NCBI GenBank assembly: GCA_963663165.1 | Contig: OY760175.1 | Coordinates: 1,440,001-1,504,000, forward strand | DNA: 64,000 nt | DNA from: an uncultured Desulfospira sp. | GTDB taxonomy: Bacteria > Desulfobacterota > Desulfobacteria > Desulfobacterales > Desulfobacteraceae | Reading direction: 5' to 3' | Shown here: positions 3,564 to 51,476 of the stretch, piece after piece | How the letters are laid out: every line of letters begins with the position of its first letter | How positions within the stretch are numbered: the first letter of the stretch is position 1 | Translations under genes and position numbers: made by a program | Notes under the pieces: generated by a model | Told to the model about the DNA's origin: nothing | Databases searched by the model: none | The model's input: the letters and a program-made list of their open reading frames with translations, nothing else

Positions 3564-3653
3564 CTTCGCGCCTCTGCGGCTTTGCGTGATTATTGAAAAG
3601 ACTCAATGCGGCTTTGCCGCATTTTGGTTTTGGACTCTCGCAAAGGCGCAAAG
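3564..3653. repeat. 8-bp periodic repeat arms (GGCGCAAA type) with a GCAAAGC mini-hairpin
   Basis: cttcgcgcctctgcggctttgcgtga (3564-3589), tgcggctttgccgca (3607-3621), tctcgcaaaggcgcaaag (3636-3653). Confidence 0.75.
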
Positions 3654-3674
3654 GTTTTTAATTGAGTTCACTTG

Positions 3675-6061: not shown

Positions 6062-7442
6062 GGGATGTGGTAAAATTAAAACCCACAATTCATTCCTCAT
6101 AGCATGGAATATCAACAGCCCATTTTTCAATCCCTGGAATCCGAATAATTTTGTTTTCTATATTATTCACGGCGGACTTGACCAAACGTACCCCTGTCGG
6201 GTAAACACCTTTGATTAATTTGACGACAGGATTTTCTCCTTTCCATGTCATTGTTCGACATAGACCGAGAACCTTTTCAATTTTGTTCAGCAATTCGCCT
6301 TTCCAATGATTTTCCAAAACACCCCAAACTCGCTCTATTGGGTTGTATTTACTGTGGTACGGGGGATAGTACACCAAACTAATATTTACAAATGCTGATT
6401 TGGCAAAGTCCACGAGGCGACTAATGAATTGGCTCCTTCGGCTACTATTTTCCGGCCCATTATCAAGATTGATCACCAGTGTATGTGGGGCGAATCTTGC
6501 GTTCAAAGAAGGCCAGAGTGATTCCAGCGCATCAATCATGAAATCAGAGGTGATGTTGCTTTCAGTGAAGTACATATAATTTTCATCCAGAGCAGGTATG
6601 TTGATACCGAAAAGTTTCAAAAGGGAATCGGGTTTAAAATCATGGTCCGCCGCTTTAAGATTGCAACGACTATATCCGCCTCGGGAATAAGGCCCTATTT
6701 TAATAGTGGCTTTTGCGTCCATTGAGATACGTAAAACGCCATCTGTTTCATCGGCTAGTTGGTTTGTCCTATGCACATATTCAAAAATGATGTCTGTTTC
6801 AGGAATTTTTTTTTTACCTTGGCTTTGGCGACCTTCTTCAGTTTAAAACCCAATTTATTCATTATGGTGGATAGAGTCCGTACTGTTGGCATATTCTCAG
6901 GGTCATATCCCATGTCGTCAACTAATCGACGGAATACTTCATTCGCAGATATTGGGGAATATAAATTCTGGGTACGGAATGTAGGATCAGTCTGACATAT
7001 AGGGTTTACAATACGAGTTATGTCCTCTTTTAAATTCGGAAAATGTTCTAAACACGATTTCCGGCCTCGTCCGGAAAAATTATCAACACAGGTAACTCCG
7101 CTTTCTATTTCCCGTCGCCCTTTGATTATTGTTTTCCGATCCCAACCCAGTTCTCTTTCAGCCTTTAGTTGTCCGCCGTGCCCCATAAGGGAGACAACGC
7201 GTGCCATGAATTGGCGCCGTTCATGGCCTTTTAATTTGCTTCGAGTGGTATTCAGAAAATCCTTTAGTGGTGGCGTTAATTCCGATATAGTTTTGGGTAA
7301 ATTGTGCTTAGAATGATCAAACATGGTCCTCCTGTATTTTTTATGTAATCTTCCATGTTGACCATAAACTATCGATTCCATGTTGTCTATAGAAATCAGA
7401 ATTCAGACTATGGAATTGTGGATATTAATTTTTCTGAGGCCC
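6062..7442 (-). mobile_element. ISAzo13-family insertion sequence, 1381 bp
   Basis: Imperfect 30-bp terminal IRs starting GGG (22/30 match), TTA duplicated at 6059-6061 and 7443-7445, transposase inside. Confidence 0.85.
6090..7324 (-). CDS. ISAzo13-family DDE transposase split into two ORFs joined by a -1 frameshift
   Basis: ORF A (6755-7324, SD GGAGG, HTH-like, QTDPTFRT) and ORF B (ISMDAKA, NLDNGPEN, YYPPYHSKYNPIER). An A10 run at 6806-6815 gives KKIPETDIIF in the -1 frame. Confidence 0.88.
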
Positions 7443-8279
7443 TTACTTTAATTTTTCAATTTTTATTTCAATAAGAAACACCAGGTACACCAAGACAAGC
7501 GCCGTGCCAAAAATAATCAGCCCGGACATGTCATGGAGAAACCCATGGGCGGTTTCAGGGCCCACCCAGGCAGCCAATCCGCCGGTGATGGTCAGCCGGA
7601 CCACATTAACGGCTACGGCAATGGGAATGGCCGATAAAAATAAGATCCACTTTTTTAATGTTGTTAAAGGTGCCAGGAAAGAAAATGCGCCGGTCAACGC
7701 CAGCAAAGACGTCAGGGACCGTATCCCGGAACAGGCATCCACTACCTCAAGGGAAGTGTTGGACAGGTGAAGAATATTTCCTTCCCGGAATACCGGAATC
7801 CCCAGCATGCCGATGGTCTCGCTGGAAATGCCGGCCGCAAACATTTGCAGGGGAAAGGCGATTTTATTCCATATAATGGCAGGGATGGGGATCATCATGA
7901 TCAAATAAAGGACCGGAACCATAACCACTCTATACATCGTGAATCCATAACAATAAACAATGATGCCGGAAATGGTAATGATCATGGAAAACCGCATTAA
8001 AAACAACTCTGATCCCACATTGCCTGCAATATGGATCAACATGCCCAGGATAATGATATATAGCCCTGTGTTTGATGGATCTTTAGGGGTCCGGCGAATT
8101 TCATGCTGCCGGTACCAGACCATATATAAAGAAACAAAGGGGATCAAAAACCCATGGGAAAAATTGGCATCCGTGGACCAGTCTGAGATGAGTTTCAGGA
8201 TGGCATGGTGATACAGGAAGCCGAAAGCTATAACGAGGAAGGCGAGTTGGTATATGTTTTTTTTCATTTGGACTTTCAT
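7443..8279 (-). CDS. xrtA: Exosortase A
   Basis: Multi-TM protein; FSHGFLIP, catalytic VVDACSGIRS, NVVR, GFLH (Cys-Arg-His triad). Start may be 8267. Confidence 0.93.
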   Translation of the reverse strand: MKVQMKKNIYQLAFLVIAFGFLYHHAILKLISDWSTDANFSHGFLIPFVSLYMVWYRQHEIRRTPKDPSNTGLYIIILGMLIHIAGNVGSELFLMRFSMIITISGIIVYCYGFTMYRVVMVPVLYLIMMIPIPAIIWNKIAFPLQMFAAGISSETIGMLGIPVFREGNILHLSNTSLEVVDACSGIRSLTSLLALTGAFSFLAPLTTLKKWILFLSAIPIAVAVNVVRLTITGGLAAWVGPETAHGFLHDMSGLIIFGTALVLVYLVFLIEIKIEKLK

Positions 8280-8701
8280 TGGGACTTGGGACTTGGGACT
8301 TGGGACTTGGGGGGAGTTTCCCTTAATTGATCCCGAAGCTTGAAGTTTTTAAATCCTGTCAGCAACCTGCTAACTCTATCGATGAGCGCAAGGACCGTTT
8401 CCTTTGATTCTGAGTTAATATATCCCAACTTGCTTGAAATTTCTATCTGGGTATCTAATTCATAAAGCGAACCTTTTGCAATATCAAGGAAACGGGTGAG
8501 TTCTTTAATGGTATATCTTCCGTGTCCTTCTGCTATATTCGATGGGATTGAAACGGCACATCTCCTCATTTGTGCGATCAAGCCGTATTGTTCATGACTT
8601 AGGAATCTTTTAGTTATTGTATAAACCAATAAAACCAAATCCATAGATCGTTGCCAGACCGCTAACGTCTTGAAACTATATTTATTTTTCTCATGCCCCA
8701 T
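8276..8701 (-). CDS. Four helix bundle protein (23S rRNA IVP / Avd-like family)
   Basis: FKTLAVWQRSMDL, EQYGLIAQMRRCAVSIPSNIAEGHGR, FLDIAKGSLYELDTQ. The C-terminus runs into the repeat (PKSQVPSPKSQ). The ORF-track start 8722 lies inside the repeat. Confidence 0.92.
   Translation of the reverse strand: MGHEKNKYSFKTLAVWQRSMDLVLLVYTITKRFLSHEQYGLIAQMRRCAVSIPSNIAEGHGRYTIKELTRFLDIAKGSLYELDTQIEISSKLGYINSESKETVLALIDRVSRLLTGFKNFKLRDQLRETPPKSQVPSPKSQ
8280..8312. repeat. Heptamer tandem array (GGGACTT)n, closing arm of the four-helix cassette
   Basis: tgggacttgggacttgggacttgggacttgggg. Confidence 0.95.
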
Positions 8702-8732
8702 ACCCCAAGTCCCATATCTCAAGCCCCAAGTC
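8696..8732. repeat. Inverted heptamer array (AAGTCCC-type), opening arm of the four-helix cassette
   Basis: ccccataccccaagtcccatatctcaagccccaagtc. Confidence 0.9.
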
Positions 8733-9367
8733 TAATTAGGAATATGCACTTTCAAAGCTGGATAAACTGCTTTTGCGTAATCTTTCAGAATATTAAGGCT
8801 GTCCTCTTCGGTGGTTATGACAGGGGAAATCAATCGGACAAAGGACCCGTCAGTCCGGTTTTTCGTGATGGAGTCGATCACCAGCCAGATTTTTTGCATA
8901 TACTCTGAAGCGATGATCCTGCCCCGGGACTGAAACCAGTAAAGAACCACCATTTTTTCAGGTCCTTTGGCCAGCAGGAGTTTGATTACCTTTCCCGGCT
9001 GTCCGGTATCGTCCAGGACGACGGGGATCGCTGAGCTTTCAATGATATTCCATCCGGCACCCGGCATGCAGTTTTTGGGGGAATGGATAAGGTCCCCTTC
9101 CTTCTGGCTCTGGTAAAATCCCACATAAAGGTTGACCTGTTCACCCGATGTCTTCCGGTAATCGGCCATGATATAATCTTCAACCCCGAGAATGTTATAG
9201 ACTTTTTGATCCATCTGGCCTCTCGTCCCCTGCCAGGGGCCTATTGTCAGGGGGAATTCACTAAAAGGCTTATTGGGGGCAATCCGTTCGGAGTGGCTTG
9301 CCAATGCCGTCAGGCCTGCGGTGATCAGCAGGATGGCGACAATGATTATGGTTCGTTTAATGGTCAT
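8732..9367 (-). CDS. epsI: Exosortase-associated EpsI family protein
   Basis: N-terminal TM, YVGFYQSQ, IHSPKNCMPGAGW, VLYWFQ, RTDGSFVR. Confidence 0.9.
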   Translation of the reverse strand: MTIKRTIIIVAILLITAGLTALASHSERIAPNKPFSEFPLTIGPWQGTRGQMDQKVYNILGVEDYIMADYRKTSGEQVNLYVGFYQSQKEGDLIHSPKNCMPGAGWNIIESSAIPVVLDDTGQPGKVIKLLLAKGPEKMVVLYWFQSRGRIIASEYMQKIWLVIDSITKNRTDGSFVRLISPVITTEEDSLNILKDYAKAVYPALKVHIPN

Positions 9368-9380
9368 TATTTTTATATGA

Positions 9381-9460
9381 GGGTACGGGATATGGGACCT
9401 GGGATTTGGGGTTACCTATCGGCACTCTCCGCAGGTCCCACGTCCCATATCCCATATCCG
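9381..9460. repeat. Empty inverted pair of heptamer arrays
   Basis: gggtacgggatatgggacctgggatttgggg ... aggtcccacgtcccatatcccatatccg. Confidence 0.9.
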
Positions 9461-19947: not shown

Positions 19948-20215
19948 TTATAAGGGGACTTGGGATATGGGACTTGGGACTTGGGACTTGGGACTTGGGG
20001 TTTTATATTGTCTGTGTTCCTTAAAAACTTAATATTTTAAACCGCATATAAGGGGACTTGGGATATGGGACTTGGGACTTGGGGTTTTATATTGTCTGTG
20101 TTCTTTAAAAATTTTATATCTGATAAGACCGCTTTAAAATCTAAAATCTGAGACTAATTCACGGATGGCATCCCCAAGTCCCACATCCCAAGTCCCAAAT
20201 CCCATAACCCATATC
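19948..20215. repeat. Duplicated heptamer arm plus unique segment (~98-bp unit) and an inverted arm
   Basis: tataaggggacttgggatatgggactt...ggggttttatattgtctgtgttc occurs at ~19948 and ~20047; C-rich arm at 20171-20215. Confidence 0.88.
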
Positions 20216-22917: not shown

Positions 22918-23022
22918 CTCACACAAAGGCACTAAGGCACAAAGAAAGAAACTTCCCAAGGGAATACAGCTTCGTGTCTTTGTGCCTTTGTGTGAGTTTT
23001 TTAAAAGAAGCCGGCAAAGCGG
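22918..23022. repeat. 8-bp periodic inverted pair (GGCACAAA) plus a degenerate mini-hairpin
   Basis: ctcacacaaaggcactaaggcacaaag ... cttcgtgtctttgtgcctttgtgtgag; ccggcaaagcgg. Confidence 0.85.
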
Positions 23023-26839: not shown

Positions 26840-26982
26840 AGCAATTAGCAGTTAGCCGTTAGCTATTAGCTGTCAGCGGTGGGCGGTCAAAACAGATATG
26901 GGGACTTGGGATATGAAACTTGGGATATGGGTTAAAGAACTGAAAGCCTGCCCCAAATCCCACGTCCCATGTCCCAAGTCCC
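26840..26982. repeat. AGCTRTT heptamer arm followed by an empty GGGACTT inverted pair in the motA leader
   Basis: agcaattagcagttagccgttagctattagctgtcagc; ggggacttgggatatg ... ccccaaatcccacgtcccatgtcccaagtccc. Confidence 0.85.
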
Positions 26983-30102: not shown

Positions 30103-30205
30103 TCACGCTAAGGCGCAAAGGCGCAAAGCTTAATTTTTCTGGGCAATGGTATTCTTTGCGCCTTAGCGCCTTTGCGTGAAAATATAAAAAAGAGGGCGAA
30201 GCCGT
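30103..30205. repeat. 8-bp periodic inverted pair (GGCGCAAA) plus a GCGAAGC mini-hairpin
   Basis: tcacgctaaggcgcaaaggcgcaaag ... ctttgcgccttagcgcctttgcgtga; ggcgaagcc. Confidence 0.88.
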
Positions 30206-30215
30206 CAACTGCGCC

Positions 30216-30320
30216 AAATCCCAGATCCCAATCCCCAAGTCTCAGATCCCAATCCCCAAGTCTCAAATCCCAAGTCCCAAGTCCCAAGTCTCAAATCCCA
30301 AGTCCCAAGTCCCAAGTCCC
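30216..30320. repeat. 15-unit heptamer array (AAGTCCC consensus) with a 21-bp higher-order period
   Basis: aaatccc agatccc aatcccc aagtctc ... aagtccc x3, directly after the LUD gene stop. Confidence 0.95.
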
Positions 30321-33698: not shown

Positions 33699-35600
33699 AT
33701 GCTCAACTCTTATTCAGATGTACACAAGAAATCCATCAATGATCCTGAGGGTTTTTGGGGACCCATTGCTGAAGACTGCCACTGGACCAAATCCTGGGAC
33801 AAGGTCCTGGATGACTCAAACCCGCCCTTTTACCGGTGGTTTCAAGGCGGCGAAACCAATACCTGCTACAACGCCATTGACCTGCACATTGAGAACGGCC
33901 TGGGAAACCAGGCGGCCCTGATTTATGACAGTCCGGTCACGGACACCATTAAAACGTTTACCTATAACCATCTTAAAGAACAGGTATCCCTGTTTGCCGG
34001 GGTATTGGCCGACAAAGGCGTGGTCAAGGGGGACCGGGTCATCATTTACATGCCCATGATTCCCGAGGCCGTGTTTGCCATGCTGGCCTGCGCCCGGATC
34101 GGGGCGGTCCACTCGGTTGTGTTCGGCGGATTCGCGGCCAACGAACTGGCCACCCGGATCAACGATGCCAAGCCCCGGGTCATTGTGTCCGCCTCCTGCG
34201 GCATTGAGGTCAACCGGGTCATTGAGTATAAGCCCTTGCTGGACCAGGCCATTGATCTGTCCGATTCAAAGCCGGAGTCCTGCATCATTTTCCAGCGGCC
34301 CCAGGCCAACGCCACCATGATAAATGGCCGGGACTTTGACTGGAACGAGTGCATGGACCGGGCCAAGCCCCAGGACTGTGTTCCGGTGGCGGCCACCGAC
34401 CCGCTCTACATCCTTTATACTTCGGGCACCACAGGCCAGCCCAAAGGCGTGGTAAGGGACAACGGCGGCCATATGGTGGCCTTAAAATGGACCATGAGCG
34501 CCATTTACGGGGTTGACCAGGGGGATGTCTACTGGGCCGCGTCGGATATCGGCTGGGTGGTGGGCCACTCCTATATTGTTTACGGCCCCCTTCTCAAGGG
34601 GTGTACCTCTATTTTGTTTGAGGGCAAACCCGTGGGAACGCCCGACGCTTCGGTCTTCTGGCGGGTGATTTCCCAGCACGGGGTAAAATCCATGTTCACA
34701 GCCCCCACGGCCTTCAGGGCCATCAAGCGCGAAGACCCCAGGGCCGAACTGATGAAAGGATTTGACCTGTCCAAATTTAAATACCTGTTCCTGGCCGGAG
34801 AACGGCTGGATCCGGACACCCTCACCTGGGCCGAAAACAGCCTGAAGGTGCCGGTCATTGACCACTGGTGGCAGACCGAAACCGGCTGGGCCATTGCGGC
34901 CAACTGTGTAGGGATTGAACAATTCAAAGTCAAGCCCGGTTCCCCCACCAAGGCGGTGCCCGGCTGGCGTCTGGACGTTCTCGGGGAAAACGGCCAGTCC
35001 ATGCCGGCAGGAGAAATCGGCGCCATTGTGGCCAAGCTGCCCCTGCCCCCGGGGACCCTGCCCACCCTGTGGCAGAATGACCAGCGGTACAAAGACGCCT
35101 ATTTGTCCGAGTTTGATGGATATTATGAAACATCCGATGCCGGATATATTGACCAGGACGGTTATGTCTTTGTCATGGCCCGGACTGACGACATTATCAA
35201 CGTGGCCGGCCACAGGCTTTCCACCGGGGCCATGGAAGAGGTGATTGCGGCCCATCCCGATGTGGCCGAATGTGCGGTCATGGGCGTTGCCGATTCCCTC
35301 AAGGGGCAGATCCCCTTAGGCATGGTGGTGTTAAATGCCGGTGTGGACCGGTCTGAAGATGACATTGTCAGGGAAGTGGTCGGCCTGGTCAGGGAAAAAA
35401 TCGGGCCTGTGGCGGCCTTCAAGACCGCCACCGTGGTCAAGCGGCTGCCCAAGACCAGATCCGGTAAAATCCTGAGGGGGACCATGCGGTCCATCGCAGA
35501 CAAGAAAGAGTACAAAGTACCGGCAACCATAGACGACTATACCATCCTGGACGAAATTGAAGATTCCCTTGGCAGGATCGGGTATGGGAAAAAAGCTTAA
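33699..35600 (+). CDS. prpE: Propionyl-CoA synthetase
   Basis: YTSGTTGQPKGVVRDNGG, LFLAGER, DHWWQTETG, LPKTRSGKILR. Confidence 0.88.
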   Translation: MLNSYSDVHKKSINDPEGFWGPIAEDCHWTKSWDKVLDDSNPPFYRWFQGGETNTCYNAIDLHIENGLGNQAALIYDSPVTDTIKTFTYNHLKEQVSLFAGVLADKGVVKGDRVIIYMPMIPEAVFAMLACARIGAVHSVVFGGFAANELATRINDAKPRVIVSASCGIEVNRVIEYKPLLDQAIDLSDSKPESCIIFQRPQANATMINGRDFDWNECMDRAKPQDCVPVAATDPLYILYTSGTTGQPKGVVRDNGGHMVALKWTMSAIYGVDQGDVYWAASDIGWVVGHSYIVYGPLLKGCTSILFEGKPVGTPDASVFWRVISQHGVKSMFTAPTAFRAIKREDPRAELMKGFDLSKFKYLFLAGERLDPDTLTWAENSLKVPVIDHWWQTETGWAIAANCVGIEQFKVKPGSPTKAVPGWRLDVLGENGQSMPAGEIGAIVAKLPLPPGTLPTLWQNDQRYKDAYLSEFDGYYETSDAGYIDQDGYVFVMARTDDIINVAGHRLSTGAMEEVIAAHPDVAECAVMGVADSLKGQIPLGMVVLNAGVDRSEDDIVREVVGLVREKIGPVAAFKTATVVKRLPKTRSGKILRGTMRSIADKKEYKVPATIDDYTILDEIEDSLGRIGYGKKA

Positions 35601-35697
35601 AGACTGAAGGCTGAAGGCTGAAGGAGGGGATTCATACATGTTAAGTCTAACTTCCTTCAGCCTAACCCCCTTCAGCCTAAATACCTAACCCCCTAAA
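35601..35697. repeat. GGCTGAA-type inverted heptamer pair
   Basis: agactgaaggctgaaggctgaagg ... ccttcagcctaacccccttcagcctaaatacctaacccccta. Confidence 0.8.
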
Positions 35698-37905: not shown

Positions 37906-40029
37906 ATGCTTCAAACCAACCGTTTCTGGAAATTTTCATTTATCAGTGCCGGCGTTGTTCTCATGCTGGCCACCCTGATTTTGTTTTATATCTGGTCAGA
38001 ACTTACGGCAGACCAGCACCATGTCCTCTCTGAAATTGCCCGGGACCATATCTATGAAGGGCTTGGCCTTTGCTTTCTGCTGTCAGGATCGTTCTGGGTC
38101 CTGTCCGACATTGTCTATACGGTGTATATCAAACCGGTTAAAAAGATATCCGCCGAAGCCCAGGTCATCTATGAGTCCAACCCGTCCCACCGGATTGCCA
38201 TAAAGGGAAACAAAGACATTGCCGACCTGATCCGGGTGATTAACGATTTTGCCGATTTGTTCGAATCCCTGGATAAACGGATCACCCAGCAGATCCTGGC
38301 GGCCAGGACCAGAATCCAAAAGGAAAGAAACCTTCTGGCCGCCGTGATGTCGGAAATCCCCCACGGCATCATTATCTGCAATACCAGCGGGCAGATTCTG
38401 CTGTTCAATTCCCTGGCCAAACAGCTGTTTACCCATTCTGACGACCCCCAAAACACCCATGGATTCATCGGCCTTGGCCGGTCCATCTACCACTTGTTAG
38501 ACAAAGGGGTGATCCGCCAGGCCTTAGATGAAATCAACACCCATCCGGCCGGGGAACGGCGCCATACCGAGTCCCATTTTATCACCGCCATCGGCACCGG
38601 CCGACTGATCCGGGGACAGGCCATGCCGGTTCTGGACAAGGAAAAAACCATGACCGGGGTGATCCTCTCCTTTCAAGAGGTTTCGGACAGCATCAAAACC
38701 GTTGAAGCCATTGAAACCTGCTTATCTGATTTTGGACGGGAACTTTCCTGCCGCAGCCAGAAAGCCGGCATGGCCCTCAAAAAATTAGAAACCCTTTCCC
38801 TTTCCCAAGGCCTTGAAGACGATATAAACACGGTAACAAAAGCATTGGAAGGCCTTGGCGAAGATTATGCCCGGACATCGGCCCGGTTAACGGAACTGTC
38901 CTTATCTGTGCTGGCCTTAAATTCAATTGACCTGAACCGCTTTTTGGGAATGGTTCAAAAAGAAGCCGGGATTCTTTACGACATTCGGATCAATATATTC
39001 AACCCCCTCAAGGATGCCCGGATCCTGGCCGACCCCTATTCCCTTTCCCGGGCATGTCTGTTTATGATTCGCGCCATCTGTTCTGCCGCGGGGAAACCCA
39101 TTGAGTTCAGCCTTTCGGTCAGCCGGCAGGATCAGCTTATCGGCTTTGACATTTCCTGGGAAAAAGAACCCGTTGCGGCATCGGCTGTCATGGCGGCGAC
39201 CGAACAGAAAATTGACGGCCTGCCCCGGTTCGGACATGTGTTAAAATTAAACCGGGCCCGGTTGCACCCCATAGGCCACACAGCCATAAACCGGATCACC
39301 ATTACCGTGCAGGCCAGTGACCAGCCGGGGATCCTGGCAAAACAAAAAATCCGGGTCCTGGCCGGGGCCAGGCCTGAGTTTTATAATTTCAACCTGTTCC
39401 AGGTCAACCACCACACCGAGAACCTGCTGGACACCCCGCTGAAATCCATTGTGTTTACGGCCTTTGATACGGAAACCACCGGCCTTTGCCCGGAAGGGGG
39501 GGATGAAATCATCTCCATTGGCGCAGTCCGGATCGTCAACAACCGGATCAATTACCAGGATACCTTTGAAGAACTGGTGGACCCCCGAAGGGAAATCCCC
39601 ATGGAAGCCTACAAGATCCATGGGATCAGCCATGAAATGGTGACGGGCCGGGACACCATAGACAAGGTGCTGCCCCGGTTTAAACGCTTTTCTTCAGAAA
39701 CGGTGTTTTTGGGACATAACATTGCATTTGACTTGAAAATGCTCAAACTCAAAGAGAATTTGACAGGAATTAAATTCACCAATCCGGCCTTGGACACCCT
39801 TTTGCTGTCGTCAGTGCTTCACCCGGTCCATGACCGGCATGACCTGGCCAGTATTGCCAACCGGCTCGGGGTTAAGGTGATCGGCCGGCATTCGGCTTTA
39901 GGAGATGCCCTGATCACGGCTGAAATTTTTCTGAAACTGATACCCATTTTAAACTCAAATGGTATACTGACCCTGAATCATGCATTAAAAGCCTCGAAAA
40001 AAACTTATTATGCCCGGCTGAAGTATTAG
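37906..40029 (+). CDS. Membrane protein with HAMP-like, PAS and C-terminal DEDDh 3'-5' exonuclease (DnaQ-like) domains
   Basis: Two N-terminal TMs; GIIICNTSGQILLFN (PAS); FDTETTG / GHNIAFD / RHSALGDA (ExoI-III). Confidence 0.85.
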   Translation: MLQTNRFWKFSFISAGVVLMLATLILFYIWSELTADQHHVLSEIARDHIYEGLGLCFLLSGSFWVLSDIVYTVYIKPVKKISAEAQVIYESNPSHRIAIKGNKDIADLIRVINDFADLFESLDKRITQQILAARTRIQKERNLLAAVMSEIPHGIIICNTSGQILLFNSLAKQLFTHSDDPQNTHGFIGLGRSIYHLLDKGVIRQALDEINTHPAGERRHTESHFITAIGTGRLIRGQAMPVLDKEKTMTGVILSFQEVSDSIKTVEAIETCLSDFGRELSCRSQKAGMALKKLETLSLSQGLEDDINTVTKALEGLGEDYARTSARLTELSLSVLALNSIDLNRFLGMVQKEAGILYDIRINIFNPLKDARILADPYSLSRACLFMIRAICSAAGKPIEFSLSVSRQDQLIGFDISWEKEPVAASAVMAATEQKIDGLPRFGHVLKLNRARLHPIGHTAINRITITVQASDQPGILAKQKIRVLAGARPEFYNFNLFQVNHHTENLLDTPLKSIVFTAFDTETTGLCPEGGDEIISIGAVRIVNNRINYQDTFEELVDPRREIPMEAYKIHGISHEMVTGRDTIDKVLPRFKRFSSETVFLGHNIAFDLKMLKLKENLTGIKFTNPALDTLLLSSVLHPVHDRHDLASIANRLGVKVIGRHSALGDALITAEIFLKLIPILNSNGILTLNHALKASKKTYYARLKY

Positions 40030-40087
40030 ATTTGGGATTTGGGACCTGGGACCTGGGACCTGGGATTTTGGACCTGGGACCTGGGGT
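40030..40087. repeat. Heptamer arm (GGGACCT)n after the exonuclease stop
   Basis: atttgggatttgggacctgggacctgggacctgggattttggacctgggacctggggt. Confidence 0.9.
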
Positions 40088-40106
40088 CTAAGGCCTATGG
40101 TCTAAA

Positions 40107-51392: not shown

Positions 51393-51476
51393 AGCTGTTA
51401 GCTATTAGCCATTAGCTGTTAGCTTTTAGGGTCGTTGGGCCAATAGCTAAATGCTAACGGCTAAAAGCTAACCGCT
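51393..51476. repeat. AGCTRTT-type inverted heptamer pair (empty)
   Basis: agctgttagctattagccattagctgttagct ... aatagctaaatgctaacggctaaaagctaaccgct. Confidence 0.88.

Follow-up and report, generated by a model that had tools for sequence, protein, structure and literature searches.

A four-helix-bundle gene framed by inverted heptamer arms as a discrete insertion between epsI and an exosortase gene

The 64,000 nucleotides of DNA analysed here, which we refer to as the window, carry on their minus strand a four-helix-bundle gene (8276..8701) framed by inverted arrays of a seven-base repeat, and this unit is a discrete insertion of about 460 bp with filled and empty alleles at the orthologous site. 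The same packaging is found around most relatives of the gene, and an orphan protein family is in this way connected to the unexplained seven-base repeats of bacteria.

An insertion at the epsI-exosortase junction

The insertion separates two host genes on the minus strand. The upstream gene is epsI (DUF3485, 8732..9367), which scores over the cut-offs of PF11984 and TIGR02914, whose product is 94% identical in the sister genome G001, and whose stop codon TAG (8734-8732) abuts the cassette. The downstream gene is an exosortase (7443..8279) matching PF09721 and TIGR02602. Named xrtA in the preliminary description, it passes the generic TIGR02602 cut-off but falls short of that for XrtA (189.5 vs 208 bits). 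In an alignment with G001, a member of the same genus with 92-94% protein identity, the whole insertion extends over 8268..8731 (minus strand, about 459-464 bp), with its right end uncertain by 5 nt and with no target duplication beyond 1 nt. In G001, 4 nt separate the epsI stop from the exosortase ATG, with neither a four-helix gene nor any remnant of an arm at this junction, and it is this direct contact between both host genes that defines the unit as an insertion. The ancestral exosortase start is probably ATG 8267, to which the G001 start aligns, and ATG 8279 was probably supplied by the cassette.

Empty alleles, for which the preliminary description had proposed a search at this junction, are found in relatives. 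An EpsI query over 41 genomes matched 21 of them, and in the 13 best non-self loci that we compared, the four-helix gene is absent throughout (13/13), while both host genes are found in 12 and are at most 32 nt apart in seven of these 12. In a public DNA contig from a related organism, positions 8213 and 8739 are bridged by 62 other letters at a depth of 105, and the same sample also contains, at a depth of 2-9, the filled allele with a sequence identical to that of the window; these contigs represent two organisms and not an excision. Joints between 8304-8312 and 8696-8704 in the DNA run X2, which seemingly skip the gene, were dismissed as artefacts because the letters between them are loops of gene-less hairpins located elsewhere. 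To judge from two further genomes, the junction downstream of epsI draws cassette-like DNA repeatedly: G033 holds a different 7-mer array directly after the epsI stop and G034 a distant four-helix gene directly after a distant epsI homologue. No transposase, recombinase or reverse transcriptase belonging to the cassette was found, in line with the earlier statement that no dedicated recombinase or transposase is visible, and the query with the focal protein retrieved no close homologue from G001.

Both arms are built from tandem heptamers. The 5' G-rich arm (8688..8732, minus strand), delineated from sequence, TRF and its inverted pair, contains six degenerate units of the type NTGGGNN/NTGAGNN over 8729-8688, of which four carry GGG and the other two GAG, and TRF assigns a period of 7 to 8704-8732. 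The start codon of the four-helix gene (ATG 8701) is itself a repeat unit, the fifth of this arm. The 3' C-rich arm (8268..8312, minus strand) combines a perfect AAGTCCC array of 4.7 copies (8279-8311) with a terminal degenerate unit that reaches to 8268 and matches the end of gene-less hairpins. The four-helix frame reads through this arm, which encodes the C-terminus of the protein, and ends at TGA 8276 within an ATGA overlap (8279-8276) of stop and start. Across 30 nt, the segments 8283-8312 and 8703-8732 of the two arms show 87% complementarity, and their pairing closes the stem of the MFE as well as of the centroid fold (z = -3.75), with none of 100 shuffles folding as well; in this predicted fold the cassette displays the terminal inverted repeats with closing stem that characterise 23S rRNA intervening sequences (IVSs). 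The preliminary description of arms that can pair and loop out the gene is borne out by the predicted fold, as is, by the sequence, its placement of the G-rich arm at the epsI stop, where the arm begins within the TAG, though in degenerate form. Its account of four AAGTCCC copies ending at the exosortase ATG is refined to 4.7 copies, an overlap of stop and start and a probable ancestral start at 8267.

Two features border on the host genes. The junction between an outer-membrane protein gene and epsI (9381..9459, minus strand) is occupied by a hairpin without a gene, which agrees with the cassette in repeat family and polarity and is also present in G001 with a different loop. On the other side, an ISAzo13-family transposase in two ORFs (6090-7443) begins right at the exosortase stop, and its high contig depth suggests many copies.

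The four-helix family and its repeats

The protein of 141 residues, encoded from ATG 8701 to TGA 8276, scores far over the cut-offs of PF05635 (127.4 vs 33.8 bits) and TIGR02436 (118.7 vs 24 bits), is about 50% identical to Xcc0516 (PDB 2GSC; phmmer E 7e-29) and shares the S23p fold of this structure by Foldseek (E 9e-6). It stays far below both cut-offs for Avd (23.4 vs 40 and 22.7 vs 80 bits). By analogy to 2GSC at 50% identity, the protein is likely a homopentamer, and it appears to contain no catalytic motif; a single-sequence structure model was of mediocre quality (pLDDT 69.5) and was left out of residue placement. The gene at the epsI-exosortase junction exists as one copy only in its own genome. 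Sister genes are under purifying selection, with dN/dS of about 0.1-0.33 for the listed sister pairs. The focal protein itself may be decaying, as suggested by its long branch in the family tree and by eight positions, including Pro34 -> Leu, at which at least nine of ten sisters differ from it.

We have compared the surroundings of 168 family loci, of which 146 were distinct, full-length and had enough flank; since these are mostly best-scoring HMM matches and include kin, they are not independent. An inverted match between the flanks (score >=12) is found at 119 of the 146 loci compared to seven of 500 control ORFs, sampled from 1321 small ORFs in this genome. Direct matches are seen at 28/146, mismatched flank pairs reach 3.5%, a period of 7 on both flanks is found in 80/146 family loci vs 4/500 controls and the median arm length is 30 nt. 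In a second, independent set, drawn mainly from two other phyla, 75 of 89 loci show inverted and 15 direct matches. Genes of this family are thus placed between inverted 7-mer arms far more often than control ORFs, which is the relationship that the preliminary description had put forward; arm periods of 8 and 9 are found in particular clades. The cassette lands just after a stop codon, which is preserved, usually in the orientation of its neighbours (166/225 upstream and 173/225 downstream), with a median of 63.5 nt between the upstream stop and the four-helix start, and it passes translation on through the ATGA overlap. By a crude motif test, at least two of 225 loci are embedded in rRNA.

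Proteins that are closely related tend to share repeat units: the units differ by at most one position in 46% of pairs with 60-70% identity, compared to 1-2% of pairs below 40%, although co-inheritance alone suffices to explain this relationship. When 80 7-mer loci were scanned without regard to phase, the strongest covariate was residue 109 (r -0.19), with a value reached by none of 100 within-cluster permutations. A latent-phase scan was unstable and placed columns 54 and 27 on a par with 109, and a global phase alignment of the units, which barely beat shuffles (-584 vs -588 to -606), yielded no clear residue-to-base code. A rule set beforehand, according to which the units of Glu109 proteins contain A-purine and the others do not, described the training set (58/61 Glu109 vs 22/39 others) but failed on independent loci (31/33 vs 27/29). 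A post-hoc rule linking Arg/Lys109 to CG was found in 9/14 vs 7/61 training and 3/4 vs 4/34 test loci.

The focal protein provides a natural comparison in this respect. Its 11 nearest relatives (55-61% identity) all contain Glu109 and are flanked by RTGAGNN-type arms (two of them short or weak), whereas the focal protein combines Arg109 (codon 8377-8375, minus strand) with TGGG arms. These relatives reside at unrelated junctions with different neighbours, two of them at other junctions of the same polysaccharide locus, and ten group with the focal protein in a tree with support 94/87. The change from Glu to Arg matches the change from A to G in the arms, and contacts of Glu with adenine and of Arg with guanine are standard chemistry. 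This correspondence is suggestive of a protein that reads its own repeat via residue 109, and with filled and empty alleles in sister species, the locus offers a clean test pair.

Gene-less hairpins and the origin of the cassette

As to how the cassette came about, we give an even chance to a mobile cassette of the rRNA-IVS type that resides outside rRNA and encodes a protein which binds to the arms of its own unit and lends specificity to enzymes from other loci. The G-rich arm, the four-helix gene and the complementary arm form a discrete unit, and gene and repeat type travel together to unrelated junctions. In the proposed scheme, the pentamer would bind the repeats of its own arms as single-stranded or hairpin RNA or DNA, with approximately one 7-mer per subunit in arms of 4-5 units and with residue 109 among the base readers. 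Host or borrowed enzymes would then copy and insert the arm-bounded unit under the direction of the protein, which is the weakest step of the proposal, and gene-less hairpins with unique loops at gene junctions would be deletion remnants or non-autonomous copies. The earlier reading of the locus as the loaded form of a mobile or RNA-excisable cassette is in part sustained by the discrete unit and its empty allele in relatives. Against this explanation stand the lack of an enzyme and of a duplication at the focal site, the single gene copy and the presence of hairpins in G001 with no detectable cognate gene.

Gene-less hairpins are abundant. The genome containing the window (G000) holds 565 period-7 arrays of about six repeat families, whereas period 6 accounts for 79 arrays and period 8 for 45. 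None were detected in 2 Mb of shuffled DNA, which rules out a chance origin. For most of the six families, no cognate four-helix gene is found in this genome. The purine arm comes first in all hairpins of the focal repeat (69:0) and of the AGCTGTT family (56:0, or 81:1 with a looser pattern), and the focal family contains G at the contrast position 515 times vs A 39 times. A common loop is shared by 47 of 73 focal-repeat hairpins, which are located far from gene ends at a median of 160 nt from a stop codon. The other 26 and all 62 hairpins of the AGCTGTT type contain mostly unique loops and are found, like the cassette, close to gene ends, the median distance being 9-11 nt from the preceding stop and 27-30 nt from the following start, as measured from crude longest-ORF calls of gene ends.

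Such positions are expected for a regulatory module, in which the protein would act as a repeat-binding post-transcriptional regulator, with arms that mediate autoregulation and junction hairpins that tune translation, termination or RNase III processing, and with the unit moving by ordinary recombination and horizontal transfer only. The overlap of the arms with the ribosome-binding region and the purifying selection on four-helix genes point in the same direction, and a similar role was proposed in the parts available to us of reports on Beggiatoaceae heptamers (PMC4679880) and Geobacter arrays (PMC2700814). We nevertheless regard this explanation as unlikely, since most of the six families here have no cognate gene, since the position of the four-helix gene is not conserved and since hairpins swap family or vanish at orthologous junctions of the sister genome, with four swaps of repeat family and one clean absence in a 360-kb stretch of G001 that offered 40 orthologous array sites for comparison.

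The common loop is the cargo of a MITE of about 200 bp with terminal inverted repeats (TIRs), several copies of which show perfect 10-bp duplications. Intact TIR pairs enclose 13 of 73 matches to this loop, and a TIR lies within 250 nt of 26/73 matches compared to 17/2000 random positions. The loop occurs in three of 161 family genomes with 63, 34 and one copies, the 34 copies being those of G001. Inspection by eye of 30 G001 copies revealed ten without a syntenic pair, five with the loop also in G000, seven with another repeat family in the same frame in G000 and two clean empty sites with duplications of about 10 nt. Since 47 of 73 hairpins are MITE cargo, spread of the common loop requires no four-helix protein, and these hairpins must not be counted as empty cassettes. 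The 'empty forms' of the preliminary description consequently hold only for the class with unique loops, which resides at junctions as the cassette does, and not for those that ride a conventional MITE. No MITE TIR is found near the focal cassette, and the sole TIR match in the window is about 47 kb away.

A carrier of this kind opens the prospect that slippage, gene conversion and transport by MITEs account for the spread of the hairpins and that the gene was captured between arms as a passenger, moving via recombination of look-alike arms and encoding a protein of unrelated function that ignores the repeat. The TIR element with 10-bp duplications, which carries hairpins of three repeat families, the retention of hairpins without the gene in G001 and the failure of the residue-109 rule on independent loci would all suit such a history, as would the observation, in the part of PMC4990558 that was accessible, that Coxiella S23p is apparently not made in vivo. 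Conversely, the four-helix family is the only one so placed in the comparison with control ORFs, its proteins are under purifying selection, the G001 junction retains no remnant of an arm for recombination, and the loops of 61/62 AGCTGTT-type hairpins are unique or paired, with MITE-frame words in only 1/56, which renders passive capture improbable in our view. It is very unlikely that the unit is solely an RNA-excised IVS, with RNase III cutting the stem, freeing the gene RNA and splitting the epsI/exosortase message, and with spread of the freed RNA by a reverse transcriptase in trans: the predicted 30-bp closing stem, the strand-fixed polarity and co-orientation that fit an RNA stage, the role of the structural relative Avd as cofactor of a reverse transcriptase and an ORF in the genome that we take to resemble an intron reverse transcriptase speak for it, but the stem would be opened by ribosomes translating both arms, mRNA ends are not rejoined after an excision and none of the cassettes examined by eye is linked to a reverse transcriptase. 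The excision of the Coxiella IVS by RNase III at the first heptamer (PMC4990558, as far as available) is a further point in its favour.

If the mobile cassette is taken at its broadest, an inert pentamer would read five copies of its own 7-mer (Glu109 specifying A, Arg109 G) and direct insertion at stop/start junctions and rRNA helices, as an undescribed but widespread minimal selfish element that is the source of heptamer arrays and ORF-bearing rRNA IVSs. We consider this generalisation doubtful; if true, the pentamer would constitute a small reprogrammable repeat-binding scaffold.

Several observations concern the wider set of repeats. The MITE belongs to a family of 170-500 bp elements with TIRs of about 18 bp, 10-bp target duplications and interchangeable inner hairpins, which at one internal position comprise three 7-mer families, a 6-mer and an 8-mer family and which differ between G000 and G001 at orthologous sites (examples are G000:C1 5632270-5632489, 1147810-1148033 and 4774823-4775036, and loci L365 and L371). 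We presume its ends to be ISAs1-like; no autonomous partner was found among ten PF13808 matches, with the MITE ends missing in the four copies inspected. One 2288-bp copy (G000:C1:2421228-2423515) holds an intron-like insert of about 2 kb with a 469-residue ORF, presumably resembling a group II intron reverse transcriptase. Within the window, further 7-mer arrays or hairpins are located at the junctions 35592-35624, 19955-20213, 26840-26982, 30214-30320, 40029-40104 and 51393-51476; the hairpin at 35.6 kb belongs to a different repeat family in G001, and two families are stacked at 26.8 kb. A parallel family of inverted 8-mer arrays of the CGCAAAGG type, which may be linked to GxxExxY genes, is found at the junctions 3639-3654, 22922-22992 and 30106-30176. 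In G001, one four-helix gene (L026, G001:C1:2500502) is flanked on both sides by an 8-mer of the AAAGTGAG type in direct orientation and another (L062, G001:C1:576111) is associated with an AGGATGA-type 7-mer. Both repeats exist in G000 as gene-less arrays, which suggests that arrays outlast the gain and loss of their cognate genes. In G000, two four-helix genes that are divergent, longer and below the Pfam cut-off (G000:C1:4153705 and 2501870) are accompanied by upstream 9-mer or distant 7-mer arrays rather than by paired arms.

Relation to known systems

A cassette of the same design is found in the rRNA of the same genome. Two of the three 23S rRNA copies that we found contain an IVS with a PF05635 gene between inverted arms of a different, CAAGAAA-type 7-mer (G000:C1:1024920-1025343 and 3719661-3720084), the paralogous cassette L035 residing inside LSU rRNA, and the third contains no IVS gene and only a short hairpin. 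The link to 23S rRNA IVSs drawn in the preliminary description is in this way found within a single genome, where the CAAGAAA-type 7-mer also forms dozens of arrays elsewhere. The focal cassette shares with the IVSs of Coxiella and Leptospira the S23p/PF05635 protein family, a sporadic presence and a stem of about 30 bp made by terminal inverted repeats, and with that of Coxiella the heptamers before the ATG; as far as the source was available, the Coxiella IVS has a 28-bp stem, heptamer repeats preceding the S23p ATG and RNase III excision, and the old idea that the IVS ORF aids mobility is cited in the same work (PMC4990558). Four-helix genes have also been located at several 16S and 23S sites (bioRxiv 2024.02.27.582315), and 18 of them inside cas operons (PMC3936711), both according to the accessible parts of these reports. 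Unlike in a 23S IVS, the arms are here translated or placed over start and stop signals between protein-coding genes, and the focal locus (L020) yields no match to Rfam.

Similarity extends to REP/REPIN-RAYT systems. In these, a gene is flanked by inverted short repeats, and gene-less intergenic hairpin doublets outlast gene loss; the focal gene likewise has inverted short repeats on its flanks and many gene-less hairpins. It does not, however, encode an HUH tyrosine transposase, and its arms are tandem 7-mers instead of palindromic REPs. A RAYT as mobiliser was ruled out, as the Y1_Tnp genes show no linkage to heptamer arrays, with GGGACTT-type arrays flanking none of the 14 matches in the genome. 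RAYT-like Y1 genes with flanking repeats of their own are found at G000:C1 4834496, 3023645, 4888309, 4421637, 1954530 and 4076509, and their palindromes are also nested inside the loops of heptamer hairpins.

Bacterial heptameric repeats were reportedly treated by Mrazek et al. in 2007. The orphan arrays on record, in the portions of the reports available, include GGGAATC in Xanthomonas, with 70-75 inverted pairs, GGGGA(C/T)T in Nostoc (both PMC4692102), TAACTGA in Beggiatoaceae (PMC4679880) and elements of four heptanucleotides in Geobacter (PMC2700814). Like the arrays described here, they are intergenic, near gene ends, often in inverted pairs and of unexplained origin; unlike in the accessible parts of these three reports, which draw no link to a four-helix gene, the inverted pair here encloses the gene as its loop. 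The Avd protein of diversity-generating retroelements (DGRs) shares the related four-helix pentamer fold and binds an RNA stem-loop; according to the part seen of one study, each of the five protomers takes part in this contact, and bases are flipped out between the subunits (bioRxiv 2023.10.23.563531), and homology between PF05635 and Avd is noted in PMC10053308, as far as accessible. The focal protein differs in missing the Avd cut-offs, and its locus contains neither a DGR reverse transcriptase nor a template repeat. IS elements and MITEs of the DDE type are represented by the element with TIRs and 10-bp duplications that carries the commonest gene-less hairpin of the focal repeat elsewhere in the genome, whereas the cassette itself has no transposase, no nearby TIR and no target duplication beyond 1 nt.

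Searches of full texts, covering few subscription journals and main texts only, gave no description that treats cassettes of a gene and its arms at mRNA junctions as a class. The cassette connects the puzzle of S23p/four-helix-bundle function to that of the origin of bacterial 7-mer repeat arrays. It is of mobile and non-random origin and, rather than a member of the IVS, REP/RAYT, IS/MITE or DGR systems, a variant of the ORF-bearing IVS.
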